Under the pieces are notes generated by a model. That model did not search any database and was not told the DNA's origin. It was given only the letters and a program-made list of their open reading frames with translations. A stretch of 19,207 bases of DNA from a bacterium (lineage in GTDB: Bacteria > Zhuqueibacterota > Zhuqueibacteria > Oceanimicrobiales > Oceanimicrobiaceae). This document shows positions 445 through 19,146 of this stretch, piece after piece. The position numbers and the translations under genes were made by a program. Positions within the stretch are counted from its first letter, which is position 1; the number at the start of each line of letters is the position of its first letter. The stretch lies in contig JBHHXT010000086.1 in NCBI GenBank assembly GCA_046757165.1, forward strand, positions 1-19,207, written 5' to 3'.

Positions 445-3276
445 ATGGAATTCACCAACCGCCGCCGCGTCGGCAGCCTCTCGGTGTTGCCAATCTTGTG
501 TTTCCTGCTGAGCTTGTTGCCAAAGCCTGTTTTCACCCAATCACTTGTCATCAACGAGTTTTTGGCTTCCAATCGCCGGGGCACGCTGGATGAGGATGGT
601 GATTCCTCCGATTGGATTGAGCTTTACAATGCCGGCGACGAACCTGTGGAGCTGGCGGGTCTCGCGCTAACAGACGATGAGCAGCAGCCCGGGCGCTGGC
701 GATTTCCGCCTCGCACCCTTGCGCCGGGTGGCTATCTTCTGGTCTGGGCCTCGGGCAAAGATCGAAGTGGAGATGAGCTGCACAGCAATTTCAAGCTCAG
801 CGCCAGCGGTGAATTTGTCGGCCTTTACGCAGGGTCTGGTCAGCAAATTGACGGGGTCGGGTTTGACGTGCAGAAAGAGGATATCTCGATGGCTCGAATT
901 CCGGATGGCAGCGGCGGTTTCGAGCCGACAGCCGAGCCCACACCCGCCGCCCGCAATGTGCACAAGGTGCCCCCCGGCGATGCTCTGGTGTTCTCGCCGA
1001 CAAGCGGGTTCTTTGAGCACGCCGTGGACGTGACGCTCGCCAGCCCTCTCGAAGGGGTCACCATCCGCTTCACGACGAACGGCTCGAAAGTCCGGACTTC
1101 CAGCAGACAATATGACGCGCCCCTCACCCTTTCCGAAACGACCGTTATTCGAGCGCGAGCTTATTCGGGCACGACCCCTGTGAGTGAGGACATCAGCCAA
1201 ATCTATCTGATCGACTATCAGGGGACGCTGCCCGTGCTCTCTTATGCCACCGACGAAAGCAACCTCTTTGGCAAACGCGGCATTTTCGAGAACCCGAACA
1301 AGAGCGGCCGTGAATGGGAGCGGCCGGTGTCTGTGAATTTTGTCGAATTGGATGGCTCGGGTTTTCAGATCAATGCCGGCGTGCGGACACACGGCGGCCG
1401 TTCGCGCCGGCAGGGCTTTCCGAAGCTGTCGACCCGGCTGTATTTTCGCAGAGACTACGGTGAATCCAGGCTGCGCTATCGCCTCTTTGATTCTAAGAAA
1501 ATCGACCGGTTCGACCGCCTGGTCATCCATTCCGGCGGCTCCAGTGACCAGTTTCACAGGAAAGAAGGGGTCATCAACAAGCAGTGGTCGCTGATTCGGG
1601 ATCCGCTCAATCACACCCTGTGGCATGAGCATAACGGCGCTGTCTCTGCCTCGCGGCCCGTGGTCCTGTTTGTCAACGGCGACCCGTGGGGCATCTACCA
1701 TCTTCGGGAACGGGTGGAAGAGTTCTACCTGGAGAGCAACTACGGAATCACCGACGCAGATCTCTTGCGGCCAAACGATGAGAAGGTCAGGGTACAAGCC
1801 GGCGACAGGCGGGCCTGGAACAGAATGTTTTCCTTCTTTGAAAACCATGATTTGGACAGTGGGTCCAATTATGAAAGAGCGCGAGAACTGATCGATCTCG
1901 ACAACCTCATCGACTTCTTCGTATTCAACATTTATGCGGGTAATTGGGACATGCCGCACACGAACATCTATTTTTTCCGCGAGAGAGCAGCGAAGGCAAA
2001 ATGGCACTGGGTCATGTGGGACACTGATGTCAGCTATGGTTCGCAGGGCAGCGGATTGCCACCGTCCACCCGAACGCTGCGCTGGGCCACACGAGATGTC
2101 GTCGTGCAGGGCATCGCGGGCACGACGGATGAACCAGACCTGCTCTGGTCGACTTTGATTTTACGGCGGCTGCTCGATAATGATGATTTCAAGACCAGAT
2201 TCGTCAACCGCTTTGCCGATCTGATGAACACCACGCTCCATCCCGACCACATCGCCGGGGTCGTCGAGCAGATGGCGGACCGCCTGCGACCCAATATCCG
2301 GTTTGAAACGGACAAATGGCCGGGCGCGAAAGCTTCCGACTGGGAAAATGGCATCAAAACGATCAGGGAGTGGGCGGCGGACCGGCCACAGCACCAGCGC
2401 GACCATTTGCGTTCAGTCCTGAGAGTTGGTGCCGACCGAGAGGTGAATCTGGACCTTGCCTCAGGGCAGGGAAGAATCCGGATCAATTCGATCATGCCGG
2501 AGGCGTTCCCGTGGCAGGGGACTTACTTCACGAACGTTGCGATAGAATTGGAGGCGCTGCCGGCGGCTGGTTTCGAGTTTTCGCACTGGAGCGGCGCGAC
2601 CCCATCCGATGACCGCGTGGTTGAGCTCGAGCTGGACGACAACAAATCCATAACCGCTCACTTTGATCGAGCAGATGTTCCGCTGTCCCCCATCATTCAT
2701 TCATTCAACCCGGAAAGCGGCTCTTCAGGGTCAACAGTCACCATTGTGGGCGAGCATTTCGTGAACGTGACCTTCGTTGCCTTCAACGCCCGGGCCGCTG
2801 AGTTCAGCGTGCAATCTGAAACAGAGATTCAGGCTACGGTTCCGGACAGCGCCAGCACCGGCCCTGTGGCGGTGAAAACCGTCACAGATTCTGTGGTGAG
2901 CGAAACGTACTATGTTGTTCTGCAAGATTCGAGCGCAGAGGATTCGGTCGCCACCGGGATTTTGGATCCACGTTCGAGCGGCCGGGATAGGGTACCGGCG
3001 GCCTTCTCGGTCACCCTCGCGTATCCCAATCCCTTTAATGCTCGAACCACCATCGAATATGGGCTACCGCAGGAAGGGCACGTTAAGCTCGTGATTTACA
3101 ACCTGCTCGGTCAAGCGGTGCGCACGCTTGTCGATGAATTCCAGCTCGCCGGGTTTCAGGCAGTACGATGGGATGGTCAAGACCAGCGGGCAAGAACAAT
3201 CGGCTCGGGTGTCTATTTCGTCAGGCTGATTGCGGGCGGGCGGACAGTCACGCAGAAGATCTTGCTGCAGAAGTGA
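445..3276 (+). CDS. Secreted CotH kinase family protein (signal peptide, lamin-tail domain, Fn3-associated/chitobiase-C-like domain, CotH kinase, bacterial repeat, IPT/TIG, T9SS type A / FlgD-Ig C-terminal domain)
   Basis: 943 aa; AAGGAAGG RBS. Lamin tail: LVINEFLASN...SDWIELYN...HSNFKLS. Fn3-associated: IRFTTNGS...TTVIRARAY. CotH motifs: PKLSTRLYF, VNGDPWGIYHLRE, NWDMPHTN, WDTDVSYG. Bacterial repeat: PAAGFEFSHWSG. IPT: SFNPESGSSGSTVTIVGEHF. C-terminal domain: YPNPFN...IYNLLGQ...WDG...SGVYFVRL. Confidence 0.92.
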   Translation: MEFTNRRRVGSLSVLPILCFLLSLLPKPVFTQSLVINEFLASNRRGTLDEDGDSSDWIELYNAGDEPVELAGLALTDDEQQPGRWRFPPRTLAPGGYLLVWASGKDRSGDELHSNFKLSASGEFVGLYAGSGQQIDGVGFDVQKEDISMARIPDGSGGFEPTAEPTPAARNVHKVPPGDALVFSPTSGFFEHAVDVTLASPLEGVTIRFTTNGSKVRTSSRQYDAPLTLSETTVIRARAYSGTTPVSEDISQIYLIDYQGTLPVLSYATDESNLFGKRGIFENPNKSGREWERPVSVNFVELDGSGFQINAGVRTHGGRSRRQGFPKLSTRLYFRRDYGESRLRYRLFDSKKIDRFDRLVIHSGGSSDQFHRKEGVINKQWSLIRDPLNHTLWHEHNGAVSASRPVVLFVNGDPWGIYHLRERVEEFYLESNYGITDADLLRPNDEKVRVQAGDRRAWNRMFSFFENHDLDSGSNYERARELIDLDNLIDFFVFNIYAGNWDMPHTNIYFFRERAAKAKWHWVMWDTDVSYGSQGSGLPPSTRTLRWATRDVVVQGIAGTTDEPDLLWSTLILRRLLDNDDFKTRFVNRFADLMNTTLHPDHIAGVVEQMADRLRPNIRFETDKWPGAKASDWENGIKTIREWAADRPQHQRDHLRSVLRVGADREVNLDLASGQGRIRINSIMPEAFPWQGTYFTNVAIELEALPAAGFEFSHWSGATPSDDRVVELELDDNKSITAHFDRADVPLSPIIHSFNPESGSSGSTVTIVGEHFVNVTFVAFNARAAEFSVQSETEIQATVPDSASTGPVAVKTVTDSVVSETYYVVLQDSSAEDSVATGILDPRSSGRDRVPAAFSVTLAYPNPFNARTTIEYGLPQEGHVKLVIYNLLGQAVRTLVDEFQLAGFQAVRWDGQDQRARTIGSGVYFVRLIAGGRTVTQKILLQK

Positions 3277-4095: not shown

Positions 4096-4437
4096 TTATC
4101 TCTTCTCAGCGATGCGGGCAGCCTTGCCTCTCAACCCGCGCAGGTAGTAGAGCTTGGCGCGCCGCACTTTGCCAGAGCGCAGTTTCACGATTTTGTCGAT
4201 ATTGGGGGAGTGCAGGGGAAAGATCCGTTCGACGCCAATGCCGTTTGAGATCTTGCGTACGGTAAAGGTCGCGTTGATGCCGCTCCCTTTCTTTTTGATG
4301 ACAACACCTTCAAACACCTGGATTCGTTCTTTGTCCCCCTCCCTCACTTTCGTATGGACCGCCAGCGTATCTCCGGCGATAAAATCGGGAAGATCTGTTT
4401 TCAGATCCCCGGCAACAAGTGCTTCTACTTTGTTCAT
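4096..4437 (-). CDS. rplS: 50S ribosomal protein L19
   Basis: [65 protein letters not shown]; canonical position after trmD. Confidence 0.99.
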
Positions 4438-4544
4438 CTATGGTACCTCCATGCCGAATGGTTTTGTTCGTCGATTACCTTCTATTTGCTATGGTTCCAC
4501 ATCATCATGCATAATCGAGACGATTGCGACGGACCGTCACGCCT

Positions 4545-5225
4545 TCACACTTGCAGGTCTTTCCGGCGGCACTTTGTCCGTTCGATCGCCTGGTTTTTTC
4601 GCCACTTCTCTATTTCGGCATGATGCCCGGAGAGCAGGACTTCCGGCACTTTCATGCCCCGAAAATTTTCAGGTCTGGTGTAGTGTGGGCAATCCAACAG
4701 CCCATTTTCAAACGAATCTGATTTCGCTGAATCAAGATCGCCAATCGCGCCGGGCAAGAGACGGACAACGGAGTCTATCACCACGGCTGCCGGCAGCTCG
4801 CCCCCGGTCAGGATATAGTCACCGATCGAGATCTCCTCGGTGGCGAGGGACTCTCTTACGCGCTCATCGATTCCCTTGTAATGCCCACACAAGAAGATCA
4901 AATCGGTTTGTTTGGTCAATTCTTTTGCCTTTTGCTGCGTCAATTGTTTTCCCTGCGGCGTCATGAGCAAGATACTCGGATCATTTAGATTTTCCTCCTG
5001 CTTGATATGTTCCACCGCCCTGAAAAACGGCTCAGGCTTGAGAATCATCCCTGGTCCGCCGCCGTACGGGGTATCATCTATCTGGCGATGTCTGTCCTGC
5101 GCAAAATCCCGCAAGTCAACAATCTTAATTTCAACAAGCCTCTTTTCCTGCGCGCGTTTGATAATGCTTTCGCTCAGGGGGCCGTCAAACAGTCTTACAA
5201 AGGCAGTGACAACAAAGATTTTCAC
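4545..5225 (-). CDS. trmD: tRNA (guanine37-N1)-methyltransferase TrmD
   Basis: DDTPYGGGPGM, LCGHYKGIDERV, SIGDYILTGGELPA, LLDCPHYTRP, VPEVLLSGHH; GTG start. Confidence 0.99.
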   Translation of the reverse strand: MKIFVVTAFVRLFDGPLSESIIKRAQEKRLVEIKIVDLRDFAQDRHRQIDDTPYGGGPGMILKPEPFFRAVEHIKQEENLNDPSILLMTPQGKQLTQQKAKELTKQTDLIFLCGHYKGIDERVRESLATEEISIGDYILTGGELPAAVVIDSVVRLLPGAIGDLDSAKSDSFENGLLDCPHYTRPENFRGMKVPEVLLSGHHAEIEKWRKNQAIERTKCRRKDLQV

Positions 5226-5230
5226 GCCGG

Positions 5231-5752
5231 TTAATCCAACAACCCTGCAACGGGCGTTATGATGATCTCTTCGTTTTCCAGGTCCAGTTTTGTGACCACC
5301 ATCCTGGTCATGGGAATGAGGTATTCACGCTCCTCAGACCGGACCACCAACACATCGTTAGCTGTCACATCCATCACCTCTTCTACCCGTCCCAACACCT
5401 GACCGGAGACAGTCTTGACCTGGAGTCCGATGAGTTCAAAATGATAATATTCGCTTTCTCCCAGAGGGAGCAGGTCCTCCCGACTTATGTTCAGAAAGGC
5501 CCCCCGCAATGCCAGCGCCTCTTCTCGGGAGCCAATCCCTTCAAACGTAAGATAGACAAACTGGCCTCTGATCGCGACGTTGGTGATATTTAGCTCAAAA
5601 ACCTCCTGCGACGGAAGGTCAATTTGAATCTTCGAGAGTTCCTTGAATCTTGGGGGATAATGTGTTAAAGGCTGTACTTTGACTTCGCCTTCAATCCCAT
5701 GCGCTTTGACGATCTTGCCGACGGCGATATAATCGGGGTACCGCTTGCTCAC
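5231..5752 (-). CDS. rimM: Ribosome maturation factor RimM
   Basis: VGKIVKAHGIEGEVKV, EYYHFELIGLQV, ANDVLVV, LIP, C-terminal GLLD; GTG start; synteny. Confidence 0.97.
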   Translation of the reverse strand: MSKRYPDYIAVGKIVKAHGIEGEVKVQPLTHYPPRFKELSKIQIDLPSQEVFELNITNVAIRGQFVYLTFEGIGSREEALALRGAFLNISREDLLPLGESEYYHFELIGLQVKTVSGQVLGRVEEVMDVTANDVLVVRSEEREYLIPMTRMVVTKLDLENEEIIITPVAGLLD

Positions 5753-5767
5753 GGAATCGCAGACCGG

Positions 5768-5998
5768 CTACTCTAGAATTTCAAGCACGGCTCTCTTGCC
5801 GTTTTTCGCTGAGGCTGCAGCCAGGAGCGTTCTGAGTGATTTGGCGGTCTGTCCGTGTCGCCCGATTACCTTGCCCATATCACCTTCTCCAACACGCAGT
5901 TCAAACACGACGGTGCGCTCGCCATCGATTTCGTTGACCTTGACTTCGTTAGGGTGGTCGACCAGGTGTTGTACGATAAACTCAATGAACTCCTTCAT
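5768..5998 (-). CDS. khpA: KH-domain RNA-binding protein KhpA (UPF0109)
   Basis: 76 aa; LVDHP...ELRVGEGDMGKVIGRHGQTAKSLRTLL (GxxG KH loop); between rpsP and rimM; GGAGGT RBS. Confidence 0.96.
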   Translation of the reverse strand: MKEFIEFIVQHLVDHPNEVKVNEIDGERTVVFELRVGEGDMGKVIGRHGQTAKSLRTLLAAASAKNGKRAVLEILE

Positions 5999-6012
5999 GG
6001 GTCACCTCCATT

Positions 6013-6114
6013 TGAATGCGATCCTCATTCATTCCTCAGGGAATTGGAAGATGGGAAGTAACTTGAGATTTGACTTGCCTACCTTGTCAAAGGTTGCAAC
6101 AGTACTTTATTCCC
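6013..6114 (-). promoter_or_regulatory. Candidate structured RNA in the rpsP-khpA spacer
   Basis: Outer GGGAA/TTCCC helix (6053-6057/6110-6114); ACCTT/AAGGT hairpin (6081-6094); TTTGAC/GTCAAA complement (6069-6074/6086-6091); TGAATG/CATTCA hairpin (6013-6031) beside the SD. Confidence 0.3.
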
Positions 6115-6147
6115 AGGCCCTAACTGTGACTGTTCTGCGCGCTTACA

Positions 6148-6744
6148 TTATTCGGACGTCTCTTTCTTGTCTTCATCCTCCGCTTTGGTGTCCCCATTGT
6201 CAGGAGTCTGGTCTCGAGCTTTTTCCGCCTCGACATTATCATCCGGCGAGCTCTCCGGCGTTTCTGCAGAGGCCTCCGTTTCCGGCGCGATCTCTTGCGG
6301 TTGAGCCTGCGCCTGGGGTCCTTTCGCCTGCCCTTCTTTGCTTTCTTGTTTGGATTCCGCGGCTTCAGTTGTCTGTCCGCGCTTCTTTTGCTCGGCTAAC
6401 GCTTCGGAGCGCTTGCCGCGCTCCAACTGCACCATTTGCCACTTGCTCAATTCCTCCGCAACCACGGCATCATCTGCACCTTGCTTCATCAAATGCCACT
6501 TAAGGAGAACGCCTTTCCTCTTTAGAAAGCTCTTCACGGTATGGGAAGGAATCGCTCCGTGACCGAGCCAGTACAGGGCTCTCTCTTCGTTCACGGTTAC
6601 CGTAGCCGGGTCCGTGATGGGATCATACGTGCCCAGGTTTTCGAGGTACCGCCCGTCGCGAGCCGTTCTGGAATCGATGGCAACAATTCGATAGAATGGT
6701 CTTTTCTTCTTCCCCATTCTTCTCAAACGCAATTTTACCGACAA
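6148..6744 (-). CDS. rpsP: 30S ribosomal protein S16 with a long C-terminal extension
   Basis: VKLRLRRMGKKKRPFYRIVAIDSRTARDGRYLENLGTYDP, ALYWLGHGAIPSHTV; TTG start with AAGGAGGT RBS; about 115 extra residues. Confidence 0.98.
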   Translation of the reverse strand: MSVKLRLRRMGKKKRPFYRIVAIDSRTARDGRYLENLGTYDPITDPATVTVNEERALYWLGHGAIPSHTVKSFLKRKGVLLKWHLMKQGADDAVVAEELSKWQMVQLERGKRSEALAEQKKRGQTTEAAESKQESKEGQAKGPQAQAQPQEIAPETEASAETPESSPDDNVEAEKARDQTPDNGDTKAEDEDKKETSE

Positions 6745-6830
6745 TCTGAAACCTCCTTCAATTTGTTCCTAATACGTTGTGTCTTAATACCTGACGATTT
6801 TTTTTCTGTCGCTTTTTAGCAACACTTTTT

Positions 6831-6933
6831 TTTCGAGTTTCGTGTTTATGATTTCGAATTTCCGGCTTGTCCATCCCGCGCATTCTGCGGGGCTTGTCCG
6901 GGTTGGGTGTTATCAGTGCAAATCCGTGGCTAA
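6831..6933. repeat. Composite repeat remnant: 7-mer-period arm, 9-bp direct repeat around a mini-hairpin, and a 10-mer-family arm
   Basis: TTTCGAG-TTTCGTG-TTTATGA-TTTCGAA-TTTCCGG (6831-6865); GGCTTGTCC at 6864-6872 and 6891-6899 flanking CCCGC-GCATTCT-GCGGG; TTATCAGTGCAAATCCGTGGCTAA (6910-6933). Confidence 0.55.
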
Positions 6934-6953
6934 TATGTGGCGAGGGCAGAGGG

Positions 6954-8273
6954 TCAGAAGTTCAACCTCGGCATTCCTCGAAGCCCAAACTTGCTCATGC
7001 GCTTAACCATCTTCTGCATCATCCTGAACTGGTTGAGCAGCTTGTTAACCTCCTGCACGCTGGTGCCGCTGCCTTTCGCAATCCGTTTTCTGCGGCTGCC
7101 GTTGATGATATTGGGACGGCGCCGTTCTTCCGGTGTCATGGAGTTGATGATCGCTTCGACATAAATCAAAGCCTTCTCGTCCACCTGCAGACCATTGATG
7201 GCTTTGCCGCCCAACCCCGGGATCATCTTGATCAGCTCATCCAGGGGGCCCATATTCTTGATTTGCTGCAACTGGTCGTAAAAGTCCTCCAGAGTGAACT
7301 CTTGTCGCCGCAGTTTCTTTTCTAATTTTCTTGCTTTGTCCTCATCAACGGCTTGTTGCGCTTTTTCCACCAGCGTCACGACATCCCCCATGCCCAGAAT
7401 TCTCGAGGCCATGCGGTCCGGGTGAAATTTTTCAAGCGCGTCAAGCTTCTCGCCCACGCTGATGAACTTGATCGGTCTACCGGTCATTGCGCGAATGGAC
7501 AACGCCGCGCCCCCGCGAGCGTCCCCGTCCAGTTTGGTCAAAACAACTCCGGTAAAGTCTAACCGCTGCAGAAATTCCTGCGCGGTGTTGACTGCATCCT
7601 GGCCGGTCATCCCGTCGGCGACAAAGAAGATTTCGTGTGGTTGGGTCTCATCCTTGATCTGCGAAAGCTCACTCATGAGCGTCTCGTCGATGTGTAAGCG
7701 GCCTGCTGTGTCCAGAATCACGACATCGTTGACCGACTTGCGGGCATGATGCACGGCCTGCGCGCAAATCTTCACTGGCGTACTTTCCAGATCAGCGAGA
7801 ACGCTGACTCCGACCTGATTCGCCACAACCCTTAATTGCTCGACCGCAGCAGGACGCTGCAAGTCGGCCGCAACCAGCAGTGGGCTGCGACCGCGACTCT
7901 TGAAGTATTTCGCCAGCTTGCCGGCCAGGGTTGTCTTGCCACACCCCTGCAAACCCACCAGCATAATGACCGTTGGCGGCATGCTCGCTTCTTTGATGCC
8001 GGAATCGGTGTCCCCCATCAAATGCGCCAGCTCATCATGCAAGATTTTGATCACTTGCTGCGCCGGTGTGACGCTCTTGAGCACCTGCTCGCCGAGTGCT
8101 CTGGACTGCACACCCGCGACAAACGCCTTGGCAACTTTGAAGTTGACATCGGCCTCCAACAACACGCGCCGGATTTCACGCATGGTGTCCGCGATGTTCT
8201 TATCGCTCAGCTTGCCGTGACCGCGCAGCTTCTTGAAGACGCCCTCGAATTTGTCAGTCAGGTCTTGAAACAT
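6954..8273 (-). CDS. ffh: Signal recognition particle protein Ffh
   Basis: LLEADVNFKV, GLQGCGKTT P-loop, DTAGR, DGMTGQDAV, TKLDGDARGGAALS, FHPDRMASRILGMGD; M-domain AIINSMTPEERRRP...SRRKRIAKGSG. Confidence 0.99.
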   Translation of the reverse strand: MFQDLTDKFEGVFKKLRGHGKLSDKNIADTMREIRRVLLEADVNFKVAKAFVAGVQSRALGEQVLKSVTPAQQVIKILHDELAHLMGDTDSGIKEASMPPTVIMLVGLQGCGKTTLAGKLAKYFKSRGRSPLLVAADLQRPAAVEQLRVVANQVGVSVLADLESTPVKICAQAVHHARKSVNDVVILDTAGRLHIDETLMSELSQIKDETQPHEIFFVADGMTGQDAVNTAQEFLQRLDFTGVVLTKLDGDARGGAALSIRAMTGRPIKFISVGEKLDALEKFHPDRMASRILGMGDVVTLVEKAQQAVDEDKARKLEKKLRRQEFTLEDFYDQLQQIKNMGPLDELIKMIPGLGGKAINGLQVDEKALIYVEAIINSMTPEERRRPNIINGSRRKRIAKGSGTSVQEVNKLLNQFRMMQKMVKRMSKFGLRGMPRLNF

Positions 8274-9336: not shown

Positions 9337-9437
9337 TGGAAAATGCGTAGTTAAGTTAACTCAAAGAAAAACAGATTTTTCCATGCCGTTTATTCGTGCA
9401 CCATGCAAAAAAAATAAAATATTTTCATCTTTCATAT

Positions 9438-9485
9438 GGGGGTTGAGGCCTTCTTATTCGTTTATATATATAGGGACACGAATAA
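9438..9485 (+). promoter_or_regulatory. Candidate ECF-dependent promoter upstream of fecR
   Basis: GGGGGTT (9438-9444)...CGTTT (9459-9463) followed by an AT-rich tract; overlapping 8-bp inverted repeat TTATTCGT (9454-9461)/ACGAATAA (9478-9485). Confidence 0.35.
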
Positions 9486-9498
9486 AAACTTAATAATC

Positions 9499-10512
9499 AT
9501 GACCAATCACCAATCCTTTGACATCAACCATTATTTCTTGCGCTGGCAAGATGGACGGCTCAGCTCCGCAGAGAAGAAAGAGTTGCAGGAGTGGTTGACC
9601 GAGCCGGAAAACGGGAAAGCCTGGGACAGGCTGCAAGCTGTCTGGCATGCCGCGGGCGTGCTGCCGGTTCCGCAAGGCACGTCACAGGATGCCCAGTGGA
9701 AGATGCTCGTGAACCGGTTGGACGCCCAGGAGAGCGCAGCACAGGCCGTAGCGACAAAAGATTCTGCTGTGGCCAGATGGCTGGGGGCCATTCCCGTGCC
9801 GCTGGCAAGGTTCGCAGCCGCAGCCGGCGTTGCCGTTTTGGTGCTGATTCTGGCCTACCAGTCCGACTTTCCGGGAGCCGGTTTGCAGGCCGTAACGGTC
9901 CCTTTAGGGCAACAGATCGAGCTGACCTTGCAGGACGGCTCTCAGGTCCATCTCAACGCCGGCTCCACGCTTGAATATCCGAAAAAATTCAACTCCGAGG
10001 TGAGACAAGTATGGCTAAAAGGGGAGGGGTACTTTGCAGTACACCCCGACCACGACCCTTTTGTAGTAGAGACCGCCCAGGCCCGTACACGGGTTCTAGG
10101 CACGGAATTCAATGTCCGGACCTGGGACTCTGCTACAGAGGTGTTTGTGACCTCGGGAAGAGTGGCAGTTCATTCACACAACGCTGTGCAAGCGTCGGAA
10201 GCAGAAGTGCTTCCGGGACAATTGGCTATCTGCAATGATGGGCCAATTACAGTACAACCCACTGAGCCAGGCGCCCTGCTATCATGGCGGCAGGGCCGCC
10301 TGGTTTTTGTCAACCGGCCGCTTGCTTCAGCCCTGGGGGATATCGAACGGATGTATGAAGCGAAAATCTCTGCCGCACCATCGTTGCGAAATCTTTCCAT
10401 ATCGGCGACCTTTGCCAAAGAGCCTGTTGAGACCATCGTTGAAACCCTGGCGGCGACCCTGAACGCCAGAGTCGAACGCACCGGTGAGGGCTACCGGTTG
10501 ACCCCCAAATAA
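9499..10512 (+). CDS. FecR family anti-sigma factor
   Basis: N-terminal LSSAEKKELQEWL..PEN; TM helix FAAAAGVAVLVLILAY; LTLQDGSQVHLNAGSTLEYP, VWLKGEGYFAV, TRVLGTEFNV, SWRQGRLVFVNRPL. ATG 9499 is preferred over 9436, whose extension covers the putative promoter. Confidence 0.95.
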   Translation: MTNHQSFDINHYFLRWQDGRLSSAEKKELQEWLTEPENGKAWDRLQAVWHAAGVLPVPQGTSQDAQWKMLVNRLDAQESAAQAVATKDSAVARWLGAIPVPLARFAAAAGVAVLVLILAYQSDFPGAGLQAVTVPLGQQIELTLQDGSQVHLNAGSTLEYPKKFNSEVRQVWLKGEGYFAVHPDHDPFVVETAQARTRVLGTEFNVRTWDSATEVFVTSGRVAVHSHNAVQASEAEVLPGQLAICNDGPITVQPTEPGALLSWRQGRLVFVNRPLASALGDIERMYEAKISAAPSLRNLSISATFAKEPVETIVETLAATLNARVERTGEGYRLTPK

Positions 10513-10573
10513 ATACGCTGACCCGGCCATCGACGCACCTGCGAACTCACAAGATGGTCGACCTGCAAGCCTA

Positions 10574-10683
10574 TTCAGGTAGATAGGCTGTAGACTTTTA
10601 GGCTGAAGGAAGAATCCATGAGAGATCATGCGAAACTTCGAACTTTTGAGCTAGCCTGACATCCTACAGTCTAAACACCTGAA
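10574..10683. mobile_element. Inverted-repeat-bounded cassette remnant (internally deleted four-helix-bundle element)
   Basis: Left arm TTCAGGTAGATAGGCTGTAG (10574-10593) matches the reverse complement of the right arm (10664-10683), TTCAGGTGTTTAGACTGTAG, at 16/20; the arms enclose an RBS and a 13-codon ORF. Confidence 0.6.
10618..10659 (+). pseudogene. N-terminal fragment of a four helix bundle protein (23S rRNA intervening-sequence protein family)
   Basis: Translates to MRDHAKLRTFELA*, resembling the recalled family start MRDHxKLRAFELAD; AAGGA RBS at 10606-10610. Confidence 0.65.
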
Positions 10684-10699
10684 AGTTACAAAAAAACAG

Positions 10700-10738
10700 T
10701 TGAATGTTACGCGAAAATAATTGTATCTTACAATACAA
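10700..10738 (+). promoter_or_regulatory. Putative promoter with an overlapping palindrome upstream of the TonB-dependent receptor
   Basis: TTGAAT (10700-10705)-N18-TATCTT (10724-10729); TTGTAT-N6-ATACAA (10721-10738). Confidence 0.35.
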
Positions 10739-10791
10739 GTAATAGCTTCCAATCTGAGCCATGGTCTAAACAGAAGTGCACTGACAGCCTT

Positions 10792-13245
10792 ATGTGGAGA
10801 AAGATAAGGTATGTTGCAAAGAGTCAGTTGATCACGCTCTTTGTATTTGCCCTGCTATTCTGGGCTAGCCAGCCCGCTTTTAGCAAGCACAAAGTCGTGA
10901 GATTTACCGCCCGCCATCAGCCATTAGGGCAGGTACTGGCGACGATCCAGGCACAGAGCGGCATTCGTCTGGTCTACGTCAACTCCGTCGTCGACTCATT
11001 CAAAGTCTTGCGAAGATTTGATGACATGCCGTATGACGCGGTGAGAAAGTCCCTGCTTGGCACCCCTCTGGACTTCATTCAAAAGTCGCGAGATCTCTGG
11101 GTCATTGTCCCGCGTTCCGAAACGCTCGACTTGCCAGCCGTCCTCGCCGGCAAAATTACAGATATCTATTCTCAACAGCCCGTCGCAGGCGTCAATGTTT
11201 TCATCGAGAATTCGAATCTGGGGGCGACCTCAAACTCGAATGGTGTCTTTGAGCTGCGAGACATTCCCCCCGGACGCAGCAGCATCCACGTGAGGCGAAT
11301 CGGCTACCATGATGTGGAGCTGGAGCTGGCCATCCGCGGCAATGCCAGAAATAGAGTCGAGATCGCGCTCGAACCCAAACCGGTGCCAACGCAGGAAGTG
11401 GTGGTCGAGGAAGCCTCTATTCCGACGGAAAACATAGCCGTCCTGACCAGACAAACCTTGACCCGGGCGCAACTGCAAACTCCTCCACTGGCCAACGATG
11501 GCGAGGTTTTCGAGATTCTGCACCAGCAGCCGGGCGTCTCCAGGCGCGACATGGACGATGTGTTTCCGCACATCGAGGGCGGCAGCGCGACCGAAGTCGG
11601 CGTCGAGCTCGACGGCATGCCGATTTATGTCCCAACTTTCGGCCAGAATCGGCGCAGTGTGTTTGCGGCCTCTATCATCGATAACTTGACCTTGTACCGC
11701 TCAGGTTTCGGGGTCGAGCATGGCGATGCCATGTCCGGGGTGGTTGCGCTCAGAACAACGGAAATAGAGCAGATCCCGTACTCGATTTACACCAGCGCAA
11801 GTTTGACCGGCCTGGCCCTTAACTACAAAAAGAACACCCGGAAGATTGGAGTCACCGGCGTCTGGAGAAACGGCAAGTTCGACAACGGCCTCAGGTTTGA
11901 CCGCTGGCAAGGGTTCGATTGGTTCAACAAACTCGAGTATAGACCGGCGCAAAGTCACAAGGTGACGTTCCTCGCTCTCATCAGTCGCGGGTCGCTTACC
12001 CAGAGCAACAGTCTGAGCAGTGAGCAGTTGTTCAGCCAGAATCTTGGCCTTCGCTATGAGTTTGGCCCGCGCAAATCAAGCCACTTTTCTGCGCTCGGTT
12101 ACACCTCCAGGCTCAATGAGCAGCAGAAAGAAATAGGCTTCAGGCTAAAATACAAGAGCCGAGTCAACCGCTTCTTACGCGCGACGGTTGGGGTGGACTA
12201 TACCGACCTCGAAAGCCACGGGACGGTGGTGCTGGACAGCCTGGAGCACTACAAAGTGGCGCGGGACATTGCGCTGCCCGGTGATTCTACCGGCAGCTTT
12301 TACCTGCCGATTGCAACCAACCCCTCAGACTTGTTTTCTCAGCGGGCCACGATCTTGTCTCCCTACATCGGGATTGACCTCGAGCAACCGTTGTGGTGTT
12401 TGACTGCCGGCGTGCGCATGCCGGCCGACTTGACTTCTGGCCGGCTCTACCCCGAGCCCAGGACGACCTTGACCATCACGCTGGGCCAGCAATTGAACGT
12501 GGCCTTTTCCAAGGGTCGCTACTACCAGTTCACCGATCGGAGTTATGCTTCGGAGGCCAAATCCGGCGACCATCTCGGGCGTGGTGAGTTCTTGATCAAA
12601 ACCGCAGCCGAGCAGCCGTCCCGCGCAGACCATTTTCGCGCTGAGGCGACGTTGCGCCTGACACCTGGCGTCACCGCTTCTGTGGCCTATTTTGACAAGA
12701 AGTACGATTTTCGCGATCGTGCTTATTTGTCCCGCATCAATCGCTGGTTCTGGATCCTTCCGCTCAAAAGCGGCAGAAGCCGGGGGTATGAATACTGGCT
12801 TGCGAAGACGGCAGGACCGCTCCAGGGGTGGGTGAGTTACACGCTGAACAATCAGGTGTACCGAAGCGAGGACGGTACCTTTTTCCGACCTTATTTCAAC
12901 CGCGACAAGATTCTCAATTTCTCCATGACTTACTATCTCCCGGGTGGCTTGCAGCTCAAAGGACAGTACCTGCGCGCCACCGGCTATCCAGCGCGCGATT
13001 GGAGTCCGGAACGGGTCATCATCTCACGCGAAAATACGCCGGAGGTGTTTGCGCGTAAATTCATGACCCGGGACGTACGGTTTGGCTCGAGAAGGCAGTA
13101 CGCCCTCGGCTTGACCTGGAACTTCTCTGCTGCCTTCGCGCGGGAAAGCCGATTGAATCTGGTGGCCGTTCAATCATTCGATGAAGGCGGCACCGGACTG
13201 CACCACACGCTCCGCTTCTGGGCCTCCATCATATTTACAAATTGA
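10792..13245 (+). CDS. TonB-dependent receptor/transducer (signal peptide, STN-like domain, CarboxypepD_reg-like domain, plug, beta-barrel)
   Basis: STN-like QPLGQVLATIQAQSGIRLVY; GKITDIYSQQPVAGVNVFI...GATSNSNGVFELRDIPPG...RIGY; plug LHQQPGVS...IEGGS...LDGMPIY...GFGVEHGDAMSGVV; barrel segments PEPR, GRSRGYE, GWVSYT. Confidence 0.92.
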   Translation: MWRKIRYVAKSQLITLFVFALLFWASQPAFSKHKVVRFTARHQPLGQVLATIQAQSGIRLVYVNSVVDSFKVLRRFDDMPYDAVRKSLLGTPLDFIQKSRDLWVIVPRSETLDLPAVLAGKITDIYSQQPVAGVNVFIENSNLGATSNSNGVFELRDIPPGRSSIHVRRIGYHDVELELAIRGNARNRVEIALEPKPVPTQEVVVEEASIPTENIAVLTRQTLTRAQLQTPPLANDGEVFEILHQQPGVSRRDMDDVFPHIEGGSATEVGVELDGMPIYVPTFGQNRRSVFAASIIDNLTLYRSGFGVEHGDAMSGVVALRTTEIEQIPYSIYTSASLTGLALNYKKNTRKIGVTGVWRNGKFDNGLRFDRWQGFDWFNKLEYRPAQSHKVTFLALISRGSLTQSNSLSSEQLFSQNLGLRYEFGPRKSSHFSALGYTSRLNEQQKEIGFRLKYKSRVNRFLRATVGVDYTDLESHGTVVLDSLEHYKVARDIALPGDSTGSFYLPIATNPSDLFSQRATILSPYIGIDLEQPLWCLTAGVRMPADLTSGRLYPEPRTTLTITLGQQLNVAFSKGRYYQFTDRSYASEAKSGDHLGRGEFLIKTAAEQPSRADHFRAEATLRLTPGVTASVAYFDKKYDFRDRAYLSRINRWFWILPLKSGRSRGYEYWLAKTAGPLQGWVSYTLNNQVYRSEDGTFFRPYFNRDKILNFSMTYYLPGGLQLKGQYLRATGYPARDWSPERVIISRENTPEVFARKFMTRDVRFGSRRQYALGLTWNFSAAFARESRLNLVAVQSFDEGGTGLHHTLRFWASIIFTN

Positions 13246-13812: not shown

Positions 13813-14817
13813 ATGGTTGAACGAGCTTTTTTAATCCTTTGTTTGTTGGGGGCCATTCCAGGGTCGGCTTCGAGTCAAACGACTCTGGCAGGGGGGCGTG
13901 GCATGTTTCGGGTGCACTCCGCTGAAACCGTGCAGGCCGGCTCCTTTATTTTGAATTCCTTTTTTTTGAGCTTCATAAATGATGACAAGAACAGCCGCTT
14001 CGGCAATGACCACACCTGGAACCTGGGTTTGACCTACGGCCTGAATGACCGCCTGGAGCTGACTGCACAGATTGTGCCGTACCAGGATGACCAGCGTCAC
14101 AGTTGGGCGCCGCCCGGAGAAACGAAAGTGGGCGTCAAATGGGCCACGCCGCTTTCCGGTCAGCGTGTTCAAACCGGGCTGCGGGGGTTTGTTCGCCTGC
14201 CCACCGCCAAGACTGCCAACCGGCCATTCGAGCCGTACTCCTCGGGCAAAGTAGCGCTCGGTGCCGTGGCCCTCCTGAGCCTTGATATTCCCGGGCGGTT
14301 ACCGCTCAGACTCAATTTCAATTTTGGCTATTTGGACAACGATATTTCAACTTTTCTATCCCGGGAACGAACCGATCAACTGCTTCTGGGGGTCGGGGTG
14401 AAACTCCCCATCCGCGCTATCATCTTTTACACCGAGTACACAGGGGAAATCTTTTTCAACCATGATAAGATCAGCTTCAGGGACAACTCGATGCGGCTGA
14501 CGCACGGGTTCAAATTCCGCGTGCCGTTCAACCTGGTTCTGGATCTGGGAGCGGACATTGGCTTCAGCAACAAACGACAGCGCTACCCGGCGCCGCTGCA
14601 CGAGTACGCTGACTGGAAGATCTTCATGGGACTGTCCTACCATTTTTTGACCAGCCGGGTGTGGCGCGGTGTCCCCCAAACCCCACGAATTGACCGCAAA
14701 AAGCAACAACGCAAGTTGCAAGAATTGCGCAGCCGGCGTGAACGTGTCGACCAGGAGCTGAATGAGATGTTGAACGAGCTCGAGAAAGAAGTAGAAAAGG
14801 AAAAGAATGAACCCTGA
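13813..14817 (+). CDS. Exported, probable outer-membrane beta-barrel protein with a C-terminal charged coiled coil
   Basis: Signal peptide to about ASS/Q; GGRGMFRVHSAETVQAG; amphipathic strands NLGLTYGL, LNFNFGY, LLGVGVKL, LDLGADIG and WKIFMGLSYHF; tail KKQQRKLQELRSRRERVDQELNEMLNELEKE. Confidence 0.75.
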   Translation: MVERAFLILCLLGAIPGSASSQTTLAGGRGMFRVHSAETVQAGSFILNSFFLSFINDDKNSRFGNDHTWNLGLTYGLNDRLELTAQIVPYQDDQRHSWAPPGETKVGVKWATPLSGQRVQTGLRGFVRLPTAKTANRPFEPYSSGKVALGAVALLSLDIPGRLPLRLNFNFGYLDNDISTFLSRERTDQLLLGVGVKLPIRAIIFYTEYTGEIFFNHDKISFRDNSMRLTHGFKFRVPFNLVLDLGADIGFSNKRQRYPAPLHEYADWKIFMGLSYHFLTSRVWRGVPQTPRIDRKKQQRKLQELRSRRERVDQELNEMLNELEKEVEKEKNEP

Positions 14818-16219
14818 GCGCTTCAGGAAAATCGCTCGGCTTGCCTTCTTGCTTTGCGGCCTCGCCATCGTGCTGCAGACCGGCGTTGTGGGCGCGGCCC
14901 TGCATGAGAGTCACAATATGACCACAATCAAAACCACCGGTCGGGCCGGTAATGATGATGATAAAGAGCAGAAAGAGCTCGAAAAGGCAGCCCGGAAAAT
15001 CTACAAACGAGCACTCAAGAGCTATGAGAACAGCAGCTATTGGCGGGCTGCGGTGGACCTCGTCATTATTCTGGATTTCTATTCCAGCTACTCCGGGCTG
15101 GATGACGTGATCTGTCTCCTGGCCAATTGTTTGTACGAAATGGAAATGTACGACGGCGCCGACCGGCTCTATCGCCACCTGTTGAAGTCGGGGCGCAAGA
15201 CCGAGTGGATCGCCGATGCCTTGTTGGGCCTGCAAAAGTCTGCCTATCAAAAGGGCGAGTTTCAGCAAAGCTTGAAGTTCTACAAAGCGCTGGAATCCCA
15301 CTACACGCAGGACGACAACATTCATGAGTCGCGCTACTACGCAGGGCAAACCTACTTCAACCTGGAAAATTACAACCTGGTGCTCAATATTGTGCCGCAC
15401 ATCAAAAAGAAAAGCGACTTTTATCCGTTTGCGCTCTACACCCTGGGGCTTGCAAATCTAAAAAAAAAAAATGTGCGGGAGTCGATCAGGAATTTTCTCG
15501 ACGTCATCCGGTTTTCGGCCAACAGCCCGGAACGGCGCCACATTATTGCTTCGGCTCGGTTGACGCTTGGGTACGTTTATTTTGAGCTGTCCAGCTATGA
15601 TGAGGCGGCGGAGCATTTGTCAAAGATTTTGCCGGACTATTCCGACTACCCGGAGGTTTTGCTCGCGAGAGGATGGGCCTCATTCAAGTCTGGAGATTTT
15701 CAGGCCGTGCTCGAGACGTTGAACGGATTGATCGAGGGCTACCCCGATTACTCGAACCTGGAAGAAGCGTATTTCTTGCGAGGACAATGTTACCTGAAGC
15801 TGGGCTATCATGACTTTGCGATTCGCGAGTATGACAAGCTCATCGTGCCGGGGAATTCACCGGATTCCGCGGCAGCGCTGCAGGAGGTCGGGCAGGGGCT
15901 TAGTAGTCAGGAAAAACGCATTGAGGAATTAGCGGCTAACCTGCAGCAACTCGAGTCGGCCCTGGTCAGGTCGATCCCGCTGGATGGCAGCAACGGGCGC
16001 CTCGAGTCCTGGGCTGACAGCCAGGTCTCGATCAAGTTGGCCCGCGAGAATCTGATCAAAAAAATCATGCGGGAGCGAGATGAGTTTTACGAGGTTCTGG
16101 ATAATATCGCCCGGCTCAAAAGACGTTTCAAAAGGAATGATCTGCGTGAGCGGTGGCGGACTTACGCTGAGTATGGCAAGGCCAGAGCGCTGTTTTTGAG
16201 GGGAATTGATCCGCAATAG
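14807..16219 (+). CDS. Exported tetratricopeptide repeat protein with a C-terminal coiled coil (GltC-like)
   Basis: Hydrophobic N-terminus; multiple TPRs (YYAGQTYF, ALYTLGLA, ARLTLGYVYF, VLLARGWASF, AYFLRGQCYL); overlaps the upstream gene by 11 bp. Confidence 0.85.
   Translation: MNPERFRKIARLAFLLCGLAIVLQTGVVGAALHESHNMTTIKTTGRAGNDDDKEQKELEKAARKIYKRALKSYENSSYWRAAVDLVIILDFYSSYSGLDDVICLLANCLYEMEMYDGADRLYRHLLKSGRKTEWIADALLGLQKSAYQKGEFQQSLKFYKALESHYTQDDNIHESRYYAGQTYFNLENYNLVLNIVPHIKKKSDFYPFALYTLGLANLKKKNVRESIRNFLDVIRFSANSPERRHIIASARLTLGYVYFELSSYDEAAEHLSKILPDYSDYPEVLLARGWASFKSGDFQAVLETLNGLIEGYPDYSNLEEAYFLRGQCYLKLGYHDFAIREYDKLIVPGNSPDSAAALQEVGQGLSSQEKRIEELAANLQQLESALVRSIPLDGSNGRLESWADSQVSIKLARENLIKKIMRERDEFYEVLDNIARLKRRFKRNDLRERWRTYAEYGKARALFLRGIDPQ
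15460..15471 (+). repeat. A12 homopolymer inside the TPR CDS
   Basis: CTA AAA AAA AAA AAT (LKKKN); currently in frame. Confidence 0.9.
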
Positions 16220-16269
16220 AATGTAAAGGTTGGCTACGGATTGCACTTTTGATGGCGGTGTGTTTTTTT

Positions 16270-19146
16270 ATGATTATGATTAAGAGAAATCTGGTTTCAT
16301 TTGCTTTATGCTTGTGTCTCGCTCCGGCACTGTATCCGGTCCGGGCCGTGGCGCAGGATGCGGCCGGTCATGAGATTCAGACCCTGCGCAATCTCGAGGA
16401 GGCGATCAAGAACTCCGAGACCCTCCTTTCCAAGTACTCGGACAAAGATTTTACCGCGACGCTGATGTTCCAACTGTCCGAGCTCTACCTCAAACGCGCC
16501 ACGATGAAGTTTCAGCGTGAGATGCTCATCTACGAGCAGGCCGAGGAAAAATTCAACCAGGGGCTCAGCGACACCCCGCCAGAGGTGCCGCGGGTGGACT
16601 TCAGCCAAACCATCAACATCTCTCTGAAACTGCTGGCAAAATATCCGGCTATCCATTTTCGCGACAAACTTCTCTACCGCGTCGCTCTGTGCTATTCTCA
16701 AGAAGGCGAGCAAGACAAAGCAGCCGAGTATTTCAAATTGCTCTCCGAAGAAACGGAGGAAGAAGCGCTGCTGGAAGAAGCCCACTTCAGGCTCGGAGAA
16801 TATTATTTCGAGCACAAGGACTACACTGCGACCATCGATTATTACAGTCTCCTGCTCGAAAGCTGGGACAGCCCGTTTTTCGATATGGCGCTCTACAAAC
16901 TTGGCTGGGCCTACTACAACATCAATGATTTTACCCGGGCGATCAGCACGTTTATCTACTTGATCGAAGACATCGACATTTTGCAGGACGTCGAAGCGCA
17001 CAACCTTGGCAAGTCCAGGGCTGACTTGCGGCAGGAGGCCATCGAGTATGTCGCCATCTGTTTCGCCGAGTATGGCGGCCCGGAGAAAGCCCGTGACTTC
17101 TTGAAAGAAAAGAAGGGCAAAGATTACACAGAAGAGGTGCTCTCTCACCTGGCGACCATCTATCAGCAGCGAAATTTCTACGATGAGGCCATTACGACGC
17201 TCCAGACGCTCATCGACTTTTATCCCGATCAACCCACCGCCGTCCAATACCAGAGGCAGATTGTAGAGAACCATGAGCTGGCCGGCGACAAAGAGCAGGC
17301 GGACCTCGAACGCGCCGTCCTGGTCGAAGGATATGGCCCCGGTTCCGAGTGGTTCCAGCGCATTCCGGATGGGCCGGCCCGGCAGGAAATCCTGAACATC
17401 GCGGAGACCTTTCTGTACACCCTCGGCAGCGAAGCGCAAGAGTTGGCGCAGGCATCCGGGGCGCTCGCTGACTACGAGATCGCCATCGGCTGGTACAGCG
17501 ATTATATGAAGAAATTTCCCACGTTTGAACGAGCGCACAAAGTACAGTTTTACCTGGCTGAATGTACCTACGAAATCGGGAACTACCTGCAAGCCGCAAC
17601 CGCCTATTACGACCTGTTGCTGAATTATCCCGAGTCGGAATTTGGCGAAACCGCCGCCTACAATCGCATTCTCGCTTACAATCATCTCCTGCGATCGAAC
17701 AACACCCCGGATTCGACGGATTTCTTCTTGTTCAATTTCCTTGGCAAAGAGCAAGCCAGCGTTGAGATTATCAAGGCGCAAAACGGCCATCAGGCCCAGC
17801 TCATGCAAGCGTGCCATGACTTTTTTGTCTACCACCCGCGCAGCCCGAAAGTCAACGAGGTTCTGATGAATTTTGCACAGATTCTCTTCGAGCTCGAGCA
17901 GTATAAGCTGGCCAAGCAAGTCTATGCCGAGGTCATGCTAGAGCCTGCCGGAAATCCGTATCTCACGCAAGCCTACTCCTTGATGGCGCAGTGCGAATTC
18001 CAGCAAGAGAATTATGACGCGGCGGAAAGCTGGTTTATGCAGATCCGCGAGCTTTTCCCGGATTCGACCCGGTACGTGGCCCGGGCAAACAAGATGATTG
18101 CCTCGTCCAGATTCCGGCGCGCAGAGTTGTACCTGACCGGCGGCGACAGCGGGCGCGCCGCCGAAGCATTCGTAAAGGTGGCCGAGACAGCCCCGGACAG
18201 CGCCATCGCAGAACGGGCGCACTTCGAGGCCGCAAAGCAGTTTGAACAGCTCGGTAAGCCAGAGCGCGCCATTGCGCTGTATGAAGCCGTGCCGCTCAAG
18301 TTTCCAGGAGCCAGCCTGCAGGACGAAGCGCTTTTCAAGGCCGGCATCTTGTGTGAAGGTCTCGAGCAGTGGGAGCGGGCCGCAACCAACTACCTGAAGT
18401 TGTATGAGCACGACCGGTTTTCAGAATATGCCGCAGGCGGGTTGTTTTCCGCCGCCAGATGTTATGAGACGGCCCATCGCTACGGCGAGGCCAGAAAATA
18501 CTACCACGAGTACACCGAGTCGTATGTCCAGGACCCGGACCGCTTTCTGGAAGCAGCTTTTCGAAAAGCTGAGATCGCCTACGGTCTCGAAGATTTCGAA
18601 AATGCCCTGGATGACTTGAGATTTGTCCTTCGCTCTTATCAGGATCTTCGCAAAGAAAAGGTGCAAGTTGATAATTATTTTGCTGCCAATTCGCAATTCT
18701 TGATAGCAGAGATTTCCTATAAAGCGTTCAGAAAGATCAAACTGGAAGTGCCGCTCGAGCGCACGTTGAAACGAAAGCAGACCCTGTTTCGGCGTGTCCT
18801 GAAAGCTTATACCCACGCAGCGAAATTCAAGGTGGCCGAATGGACGACCGCCTCTTCCTACAAGATCGGACAAACCTTTGAGGAGTTTGCAGATGCCCTG
18901 CTGGCGGCGCCGCAGCCAAAGAATCTGTCGGCAAACGATCGGGATCAATATAACCGCACGCTTTGGGAGCGGGTTCTGCCTTTCAAGGAAAAGGCCAGGA
19001 AAGCGTACGAAACCAATGTGAAGAATGCCCGGGAGAATGGCATTCAAAATCGATGGATCATGGAAAGCGAAAAGCGGCTGAGTGAGCTCAGTCTTGAGTT
19101 AGGCCTCGGCGCCGCAGCCCCTCACCGTGATGACGCCGGGTCCTGA
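16270..19146 (+). CDS. Large exported tetratricopeptide repeat protein (GltD/AgmU-like)
   Basis: Signal peptide MIKRNLVSFALCLCLAPALYPVRAVA/Q (start could be 16249, 16252, 16270 or 16276); EEAHFRLGEYYF, ALYKLGWAYYN, DLRQEAI, YGPGSEW; C-terminus EWTTASSYKIGQTFEEFADALLAAPQPKNL...VLPFKEKARKAYETNV...NRWIMES. Confidence 0.88.
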   Translation: MIMIKRNLVSFALCLCLAPALYPVRAVAQDAAGHEIQTLRNLEEAIKNSETLLSKYSDKDFTATLMFQLSELYLKRATMKFQREMLIYEQAEEKFNQGLSDTPPEVPRVDFSQTINISLKLLAKYPAIHFRDKLLYRVALCYSQEGEQDKAAEYFKLLSEETEEEALLEEAHFRLGEYYFEHKDYTATIDYYSLLLESWDSPFFDMALYKLGWAYYNINDFTRAISTFIYLIEDIDILQDVEAHNLGKSRADLRQEAIEYVAICFAEYGGPEKARDFLKEKKGKDYTEEVLSHLATIYQQRNFYDEAITTLQTLIDFYPDQPTAVQYQRQIVENHELAGDKEQADLERAVLVEGYGPGSEWFQRIPDGPARQEILNIAETFLYTLGSEAQELAQASGALADYEIAIGWYSDYMKKFPTFERAHKVQFYLAECTYEIGNYLQAATAYYDLLLNYPESEFGETAAYNRILAYNHLLRSNNTPDSTDFFLFNFLGKEQASVEIIKAQNGHQAQLMQACHDFFVYHPRSPKVNEVLMNFAQILFELEQYKLAKQVYAEVMLEPAGNPYLTQAYSLMAQCEFQQENYDAAESWFMQIRELFPDSTRYVARANKMIASSRFRRAELYLTGGDSGRAAEAFVKVAETAPDSAIAERAHFEAAKQFEQLGKPERAIALYEAVPLKFPGASLQDEALFKAGILCEGLEQWERAATNYLKLYEHDRFSEYAAGGLFSAARCYETAHRYGEARKYYHEYTESYVQDPDRFLEAAFRKAEIAYGLEDFENALDDLRFVLRSYQDLRKEKVQVDNYFAANSQFLIAEISYKAFRKIKLEVPLERTLKRKQTLFRRVLKAYTHAAKFKVAEWTTASSYKIGQTFEEFADALLAAPQPKNLSANDRDQYNRTLWERVLPFKEKARKAYETNVKNARENGIQNRWIMESEKRLSELSLELGLGAAAPHRDDAGS

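Follow-up and report, generated by a model that had tools for sequence, protein, structure and literature searches.

Mobile insertion cassettes, such as MIC231 of Bacillus cereus with its IS231 ends, and MITEs derived from insertion sequences are described together in part of PMC6199540. Inserts of another kind occur in 23S rRNA, for instance of Coxiella burnetii and Leptospira, where ORF-bearing intervening sequences (S23p) of 428-444 nt have a 28-bp stem and are associated with RNase III; the part of PMC4990558 that treats them calls their origin unclear and gives a transposition remnant as one hypothesis. Heptamer direct repeats (TAACTGA) between genes have been reported from Beggiatoaceae, Cyanobacteria and Bacteroidetes with a possible regulatory role (PMC4679880, in part), and the terms S23, intervening and four-helix are absent from the main text of that paper.

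The window analysed here, a stretch of 19,207 nt at its full length, contains a hairpin element between an ECF sigma/fecR pair and a TonB-receptor-like gene, with both flanking genes co-directional. In our judgement this copy is a decayed, internally deleted form of a transposase-less cassette of about 450 bp which was likely moved in trans by an ISBst12-group transposase, and it has probably been immobile since its left tip was lost.

The copy between fecR and the receptor gene

The first-pass annotation had described 20-bp imperfect inverted arms, paired at 16 of 20 positions (10574-10593/10664-10683), around an AAGGA motif and the mini-ORF MRDHAKLRTFELA*, and all of these are present as claimed (Table 1). 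The pairing extends to 23/31 (10574-10604/10653-10683), and the ATG at 10618, which opens the frame, lies 7 nt beyond the AAGGA. The first A of this motif (10606) is private to the window copy, most copies having T, and the TGA stop of the stub is right-arm sequence, not gene sequence. With reference to a 458-bp cassette the window copy retains positions 5-95 and 429-458, at an identity of 0.96 to the family consensus, in line with the earlier description of a non-autonomous derivative produced by internal deletion. The AGCC at the junction is by eye compatible with both gene and right arm; spliced alignment gives zero microhomology there.

The true element extends beyond the arms first described. 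On the right it closes with the repeat CTGAAAGTTAC (10679-10689), and on the left with an eroded repeat at about 10567-10578, where AAGCCTATTCAG matches the family repeat GTAACTATTCAG at 8 of 12 positions and the outer 4 nt are lost or replaced. A conserved block with an A-tract and TTGAAT, which is also found in the related genomes G004 and G005, begins in the window at 10690, right after GTTAC, and since conserved host sequence resumes there, the right end is placed 6 nt past the boundary drawn in the first reading. From its sequence this block appears promoter-like; a promoter and terminator scan around the window element gave 0 promoter-like sites and 0 terminators, and an Rfam search of 10300-11000 gave 0 matches at E<=1.

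Table 1. Positions of the element and of the neighbouring host features in the window
Feature	Position	Strand	Basis or remark
Left terminal inverted repeat, eroded (AAGCCTATTCAG)	10567..10578	+	Sequence; comparison with IS ends; graded tip decay across copies
Left arm: CAGG and degenerate 7-8-nt units (TAGGCTG/TAGACTT)	10574..10609	+	Aligned to intact alleles
Ribosome-binding-site-like AAGGA	10606..10610	+	Predicted paired in hairpin, pairing probability 0.6-0.9
13-codon stub MRDHAKLRTFELA* of four-helix-bundle gene (TIGR02436/PF05635, S23p)	10618..10659	+	Stop from right arm
Deletion junction, about 330 bp of the ~458-bp cassette gone	10653..10656	+	Found at window locus only
Right arm: inverted 7-8-nt units, CCTG at end	10653..10683	+	Pairing; alignment
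Right terminal inverted repeat GTAACTTTCAG (one base short of GTAACTATTCAG), ISBst12/IS66 type	10679..10689	-	End comparison
Host block conserved in orthologues (A-tract, TTGAAT, 18 nt, TATCTT)	10690..10729	+	Orthologue comparison
fecR-type anti-sigma gene (host, upstream)	9436..10512	+	PF04773, PF16344
TonB-dependent-receptor-like gene (host, downstream)	10792..13245	+	PF13715, PF13620; weak PF07715 just below cut-off

Both flanks are covered by contigs from 4 runs of one study (three of these runs may be where this DNA came from), and the contigs overlap each other within the left arm, which shows that the element is not an assembly artefact, while no single piece spans the whole stretch. 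The summed read depth over the left arm is ~65-88x that of the flanks, and among the joints listed for the reads none skips the element.

The proposal that gene and arms form a discrete inserted unit is supported by the corresponding spacers of relatives. From a locus set of 12, with the distant, paralogue-level loci L016-L018 excluded, eight orthologous fecR loci were examined (35-62% protein identity), and all eight are without arms; the receptor gene lies directly downstream in six. These loci belong to other genera and hence do not represent exact empty sites. The earlier account also had the coding sequence lost after insertion at this site, and here only the insertion itself stands. Gene-less forms have moved independently in the same genome and the window junction is unique, so that loss in place is indistinguishable from arrival in an already deleted state followed by further decay.

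The predicted fold of the 110-nt RNA of the window copy (-40.8 kcal/mol, z -5.45) was not equalled in stability by any of 200 shuffles. Such a hairpin, well conserved with respect to the family and placed just upstream of the adjoining promoter-like block, could be taken as a remnant retained for a regulatory role, as terminator or processing site, or for its peptide. We consider this very improbable, given that the element is missing from every orthologous locus examined, that its junction occurs once and that no terminator, promoter or Rfam match was obtained; moreover, the start codon of the stub is predicted to be fully paired in the hairpin, and 13 copies elsewhere keep the start region with unrelated tails. 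The 13-aa peptide probably has no function. With its unique junction, its eroded left tip and no target duplication (1/8 positions), the window copy is a relic and probably dead.

The 54 bp from the fecR stop to the left tip (10513-10566) contain a small CCATC/GATGG stem; nothing in the orthologous spacers matches them, nor does any other part of the genome to a significant degree. As for the rest of the window, 445-3276 encodes a 943-aa secreted protein with lamin-tail, CotH kinase, TIG and C-terminal sorting-like domains; 4096-8273 (minus strand) is what we take to be an ffh-rpsP-KH-rimM-trmD-rplS housekeeping operon, the S16-like protein of which has a long acidic tail; and an operon downstream of the receptor gene (13813-19146) encodes a 334-aa protein, for which no Pfam match was found, and two TPR proteins (470 and 965 aa).

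A family of deleted cassettes in the same genome

The arms recur elsewhere in the genome of the window (G000): 117 arm sites were found at a PWM score of at least 20 bits against 0 in the reversed genome, which excludes chance. Arm sites and BLAST pieces cluster into 105 loci, of which 83 align to the cassette at a score of at least 60 and 96 at a score of at least 40, so that copies with various deletions number about 83-105 in this genome. The 30 inward-facing arm pairs span 66 to 904 bp, and inside the paired copies lie collinear segments of a single gene, in many cases together with other, nested repeat families. The divergence of the copies from their own consensus, about 8%, fits a past burst, though it does not prove one.

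The mini-ORF had been read as the start of a TIGR02436/PF05635 protein, and this reading holds. The longest allele in G000, C340, gave an E of 2e-30 with PF05635 and also passed the TIGR02436 cut-off; its gene is interrupted at the 3' end, and its DNA was matched in 12 of the 61 genomes searched. In three relatives (G004, G007 and G018) uninterrupted genes of 117-119 aa lie between the same arms, about 430-460 bp overall, so the full-length alleles sought as a check do exist, and they contain just this one gene and no transposase. The identity of the window peptide rests on DNA alignment with these family alleles, 13 aa being under the minimum length of the HMM tools. The four-helix-bundle protein matches the solved pentamer Xcc0516 (PDB 2GSC) at E 2e-25. 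All 80 related genes retrieved have open frames of 116-139 codons, in a set which is biased to intact genes since it was retrieved by protein similarity, and pN is 0.14 against a pS of 0.70 (12 genes; uncorrected and saturated values). Judging from these sequences, the intact gene seems to matter to something.

A relation to Avd, the accessory protein of diversity-generating retroelements, had also been put forward; it holds at the level of the fold and not beyond it, the Avd HMM giving 23-33 bits, far under the cut-off of 80. One may ask whether an Avd-like protein helped a reverse transcriptase to copy cassette RNA, the deletions being template jumps, and the weak Avd matches (E 5e-5 to 5e-8), the sense bias described below and the many collinear copies with multiple deletions point that way. 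However, the only reverse transcriptase detected in G000 belongs to a group II intron, terminal repeats flanked by 8-bp duplications are the hallmark of DDE enzymes, and an adenine bias is missing from the sense-strand substitution rates (A 0.090, T 0.108, C 0.069, G 0.059), the rates in the gene part being 0.089-0.109 for all four bases. Retro-mobility of this type is already largely refuted, and we give it hardly any weight. The intron reverse transcriptase gene (472 aa; L047, contig C362) is followed by a second RT-like fragment.

Several deleted forms lack the gene altogether. Within the gene-less subfamily the junction 42|164 (reference positions) is found at 9 loci and the junction 239|361 at 6; five loci have a common 22-nt insert and a sixth one of 23 nt, the flanks are unrelated at about 12 loci, and the copy C9 has a 7/8 target duplication. 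Shared junctions at unrelated sites indicate that deleted forms moved too, and these copies spread without the four-helix-bundle gene in cis. The window form, 95|429, occurs once in G000. Microhomology was considered as the driver of deletion; it averages 1.2 nt in 54 clean junctions and 0.69 in shifted controls (p 0.04) and reaches at least 3 nt in 5 of the 54, only slightly over control, and such a role is weak at best. It may be that the long hairpins, once in place, were prone to internal deletions and to erosion of their tips.

According to a home-made gene caller, none of the 78 oriented loci falls within an ORF of at least 150 aa, and between co-directional genes 35 loci are in sense and 8 in antisense orientation (p 4e-5). 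Selection against antisense hairpins could be sufficient for the sense bias, as could a target bias. Insertions inside genes may have been purged, and sense-orientation insertions in operon spacers kept.

Some copies show further rearrangement. Other short-period repeats (GTCATT, CCGGACAAGCCGG, GGAGTAATGGAGTGAT, CACGCTAAAGCGTG) are nested in family copies, often near the right arm (C340, C72, C10:32030, C292, C61:508, C124, C101 and others), as if the hairpins were insertion hot spots. At C2:7365-8268 two family copies bracket a gene of ~640 bp, which from a reading of its sequence we take to be aldolase-like, an arrangement that might function as a composite transposon. The copies at C84:19168-19349 and C274:3242-3716 have internal inversions or nested arms in both orientations.

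Terminal repeats, target duplications and the route of movement

The true ends of the cassette are 12-bp inverted repeats, GTAACTATTCAG, outside the reported arms, and conservation beyond CAGG declines gradually towards them. Measured from the reported arm ends, short target duplications gave no signal in 29 two-ended copies; the signal appeared only with the boundary shifted about 9-12 nt outward. The 11-nt tip has 151 sites in G000 against 62 for the reversed motif, and 8 of the 9 inward tip pairs are flanked by 8-bp repeats at 7-8/8, two of the eight belonging to the cassette family and six to a second, gene-less family. Both tips are retained in 2 of 38 two-ended family copies, each with a 7/8 duplication, while a single one of the other 36 reaches at least 6/8 and mismatched flank pairings reach at least 7/8 in 1 of 1406 cases. 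Similar findings were made in relatives. Among intact-gene loci with both tips 3 of 8 have 8/8 duplications (mismatched control 0/56 at >=7), and the 12-nt tip occurs 51, 32, 17, 3 and 2 times in five related genomes, against 0, 3, 6, 6 and 2 for the reversed motif. In 30 loci examined out of the 105 tip-pattern matches in these five genomes there are 14 two-ended elements, with duplications of at least 7/8 in 8, of 6/8 in 3 and of at most 4/8 in 3.

These data do not support the earlier suggestion of a poorly described class of mobile cassettes bounded by hairpins. The bounds are ISBst12/IS66-type terminal repeats with 8-bp target duplications, which places the family with known transposase-less cassettes (MIC/MITE), and with no transposase gene between its ends the cassette is a derivative of IS66-ISBst12 elements and not itself an IS. 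The same ends and the 8-bp duplications at copies with both tips speak against a REPIN-like element whose GTAG words would be recognised by a mobilising RAYT/Y1 HUH transposase, a reading suggested by the several GTAG words in the arms and by three PF01797 matches in G000. None of the three lies inside a family copy and, to our knowledge, HUH enzymes make no 8-bp duplications; the chance that this reading is right appears negligible.

The second gene-less palindromic family (C89:2783-2935 and 15 more loci in G000) has the core GGAGTGCAAAAATCAG and a length of about 95-155 bp; it carries the same terminal repeat, and 6 of its 7 two-ended copies have 7-8/8 duplications. In another genome (G083) the element L164:1501-2024, 524 bp long, has ISBst12-type ends and a perfect 8-bp duplication and carries an intact GxxExxY gene (131 aa; TIGR04256) flanked by short repeats of its own, so the same type of ends wraps another cargo.

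GTAA ends with 8-bp repeats are a mark of IS66. According to the part of PMC12898284 concerned with it, ISDge4 of the ISBst12 group has the ends GTGACTACTCAGCA/GTAACTGCTCAGCA and an 8-bp repeat, and the cassette tips match both ISDge4 and transposase-bearing ISBst12-group elements in related genomes. Among 30 IS66 loci from relatives, L140 (in G013, of the same family) has one end identical to GTAACTATTCAG over 12 nt. A complete IS66 element of 1523 bp with cassette-type ends is present in G069 (L141), and no target duplication was found there (1/8). L163 is a complete IS in G084, a genome that also holds an intact cassette. The transposases of all three are above the NF033517 cut-off, and IS66 loci of the three-gene type (e.g. 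L131, L136) have different GTAA ends. In the G000 assembly neither PF03050 nor tblastn gave an IS66 transposase match, and a search of 10 cassette-bearing genomes with one ISBst12-type query protein each was without match in 8, the two matches being in G084 and in G013, itself the source of one transposase query. These assemblies are fragmented, and multi-copy IS are often missing from such assemblies, which may account for the absence but does not prove that a transposase was present. IS4-type and other PF01609 transposases were considered as partners and rejected, none of the 3 matches in G000 being on a contig with the terminal repeat. On this comparison of ends and proteins the family was likely spread by a borrowed ISBst12-group transposase, which would have recognised the 12-bp ends during a past burst.

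Other data are less readily fitted to such ends. All 9 outer tip bases are kept at 27 of 110 ends, and one or both tips are missing in 36 of the 38 two-ended copies. Tip loss shows no correlation with the divergence of the interiors (rho -0.07, p 0.50), so that simple ageing does not explain it, and we have dropped it as a marker of age. Of the 80 related gene loci taken from GTDB, 76 were scored (4 were dropped for short flanks), and both tips are present in 5 at <=1 mismatch and in 8 at <=2, where the looser count includes chance hits according to the wrong-strand controls for single ends (1 and 1 at <=1 mismatch; 7 and 9 at <=2). Arms are still visible by eye in most of the tip-less loci, and the IS ends are therefore not enough to account for how the gene family as a whole has spread.

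The strongest rival explanation builds on this. It has two layers: the unit of arms and gene moves by a route of its own, for example with the protein attached to the arms in their RNA or single-stranded DNA form and host repair integrating them with ragged ends and no duplication, while the IS66 ends are a wrapper acquired by one lineage; many copies in G000, the window copy among them, would then have arisen by the ragged route. The roughly 9 in 10 related loci that lack the tips, most of them with arms visible by eye, the 36 of 38 two-ended copies without one or both tips, the tip loss that does not follow divergence, the strong sense bias and the apparent conservation of intact genes at the protein level are all in its favour, as are four other PF05635 genes in G000 which lie between different repeat arms. 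We nevertheless regard it as unlikely. Remains of the tip sequence are present at the ragged ends far more often than chance allows, which is what erosion of a complete tip would leave, the copies with both tips have clean 8-bp duplications, and the second gene-less family and the GxxExxY gene employ the same ends. Moreover, we know of no catalytic motif in the four-helix-bundle (PF05635) protein.

In total five more PF05635 genes were noted in G000 (L002-L006, on contigs C387, C300, C304, C224 and C56), four of them between inverted arrays of other units (GTCATTG, GCAGAGG, TTTGATA and GTGAGAC); the match on C304 has a stop at its start, and the gene on C56 is longer, with no arms seen.

Meaning and comparison with known systems

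No function has become known for the S23p/four-helix-bundle family since its discovery in 23S rRNA inserts. The cassette family provides evidence at the DNA level for one concrete way in which such a gene moves, namely IS66-type ends with 8-bp duplications and a matching transposase in relatives, although these ends account for only about a tenth of the related loci sampled. A single cassette has left behind, as debris, many of the odd hairpins, heptamer arrays and mini-ORFs that lie between genes in such genomes, and such debris at about 83-105 loci in G000 matters for annotation. It is the family and its testable link to the rRNA inserts, not the dead copy in the window, which carry the significance. 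No paper linking the S23p gene family to IS66 ends or MITEs was found in a literature search that covered the main texts of mainly open-access papers.

It is tempting to speculate, as a possibility that we hold to be rather doubtful, that the unit of gene and arms is a selfish module tolerated at the RNA level, lying in sense orientation in operons with a stem of the RNase III type and encoding an Avd-fold pentamer that binds the arms. The pentamer would take part in the spread or processing of the module, the ISBst12 ends, which also wrap the GxxExxY gene, would be one vehicle among several, and the ORF-bearing rRNA inserts would be such modules that had come to lie in rRNA.

The cassette shares with the ORF-bearing 23S rRNA intervening sequences the protein family, with the Xcc0516 match cited above, as well as a similar size and a gene enclosed by a terminal stem, which is about 28-30 bp in the rRNA inserts; in contrast to these, the window copy lies between fecR and a receptor gene and the family is multi-copy. 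Like the heptamers in the portions of PMC4679880 concerned, it has short 7-nt repeats in spacers, for the most part forward and directly upstream of start codons; the heptamers are described as direct repeats, whereas the cassette unit is TAGGCTG, inverted and within IS ends. The fold is related to that of Avd (PMC10053308, in part), with a weak HMM match; in distinction from the diversity-generating retroelements the score is under the cut-off, no reverse transcriptase of their type was found and there is no adenine-biased mutation. Unlike REP/REPIN elements with a RAYT, the family copies contain no Y1 transposase and have target duplications.

The resemblance is closer to elements with IS ends. 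The ISBst12 group of IS66, as exemplified by ISDge4 in the part of PMC12898284 that covers it, shares the repeat GTAACT(A/G)(C/T)TCAG and the 8-bp target duplication, the difference being that the cassette is without a DDE transposase gene, none having been found in this assembly. Like a mobile insertion cassette it has two IS-type inverted ends, a passenger gene and no transposase, movement in trans has been shown for MIC231 and is likely here, and gene-less derivatives multiply, as in MIC and MITE systems; as to the ends, the window copy has the right tip and an eroded left one. The cassette differs from MIC231 in having ends of the IS66/ISBst12 and not the IS4/IS231 type, and from mobile insertion cassettes generally in its size (430-470 bp against about 700 bp-3 kb), in the inner arms of 7-8-nt repeats that form a long stem, and in a passenger protein without assigned function. 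The traits of a MITE, that is, a short non-coding element with terminal repeats and a duplication, found in the same form at multiple sites, are those of the gene-less subfamily 42|164...239|361, the window form 95|429 having been seen once. Overall, the family is a mobile insertion cassette/MITE family with ISBst12 ends, and not a categorically new hairpin element.
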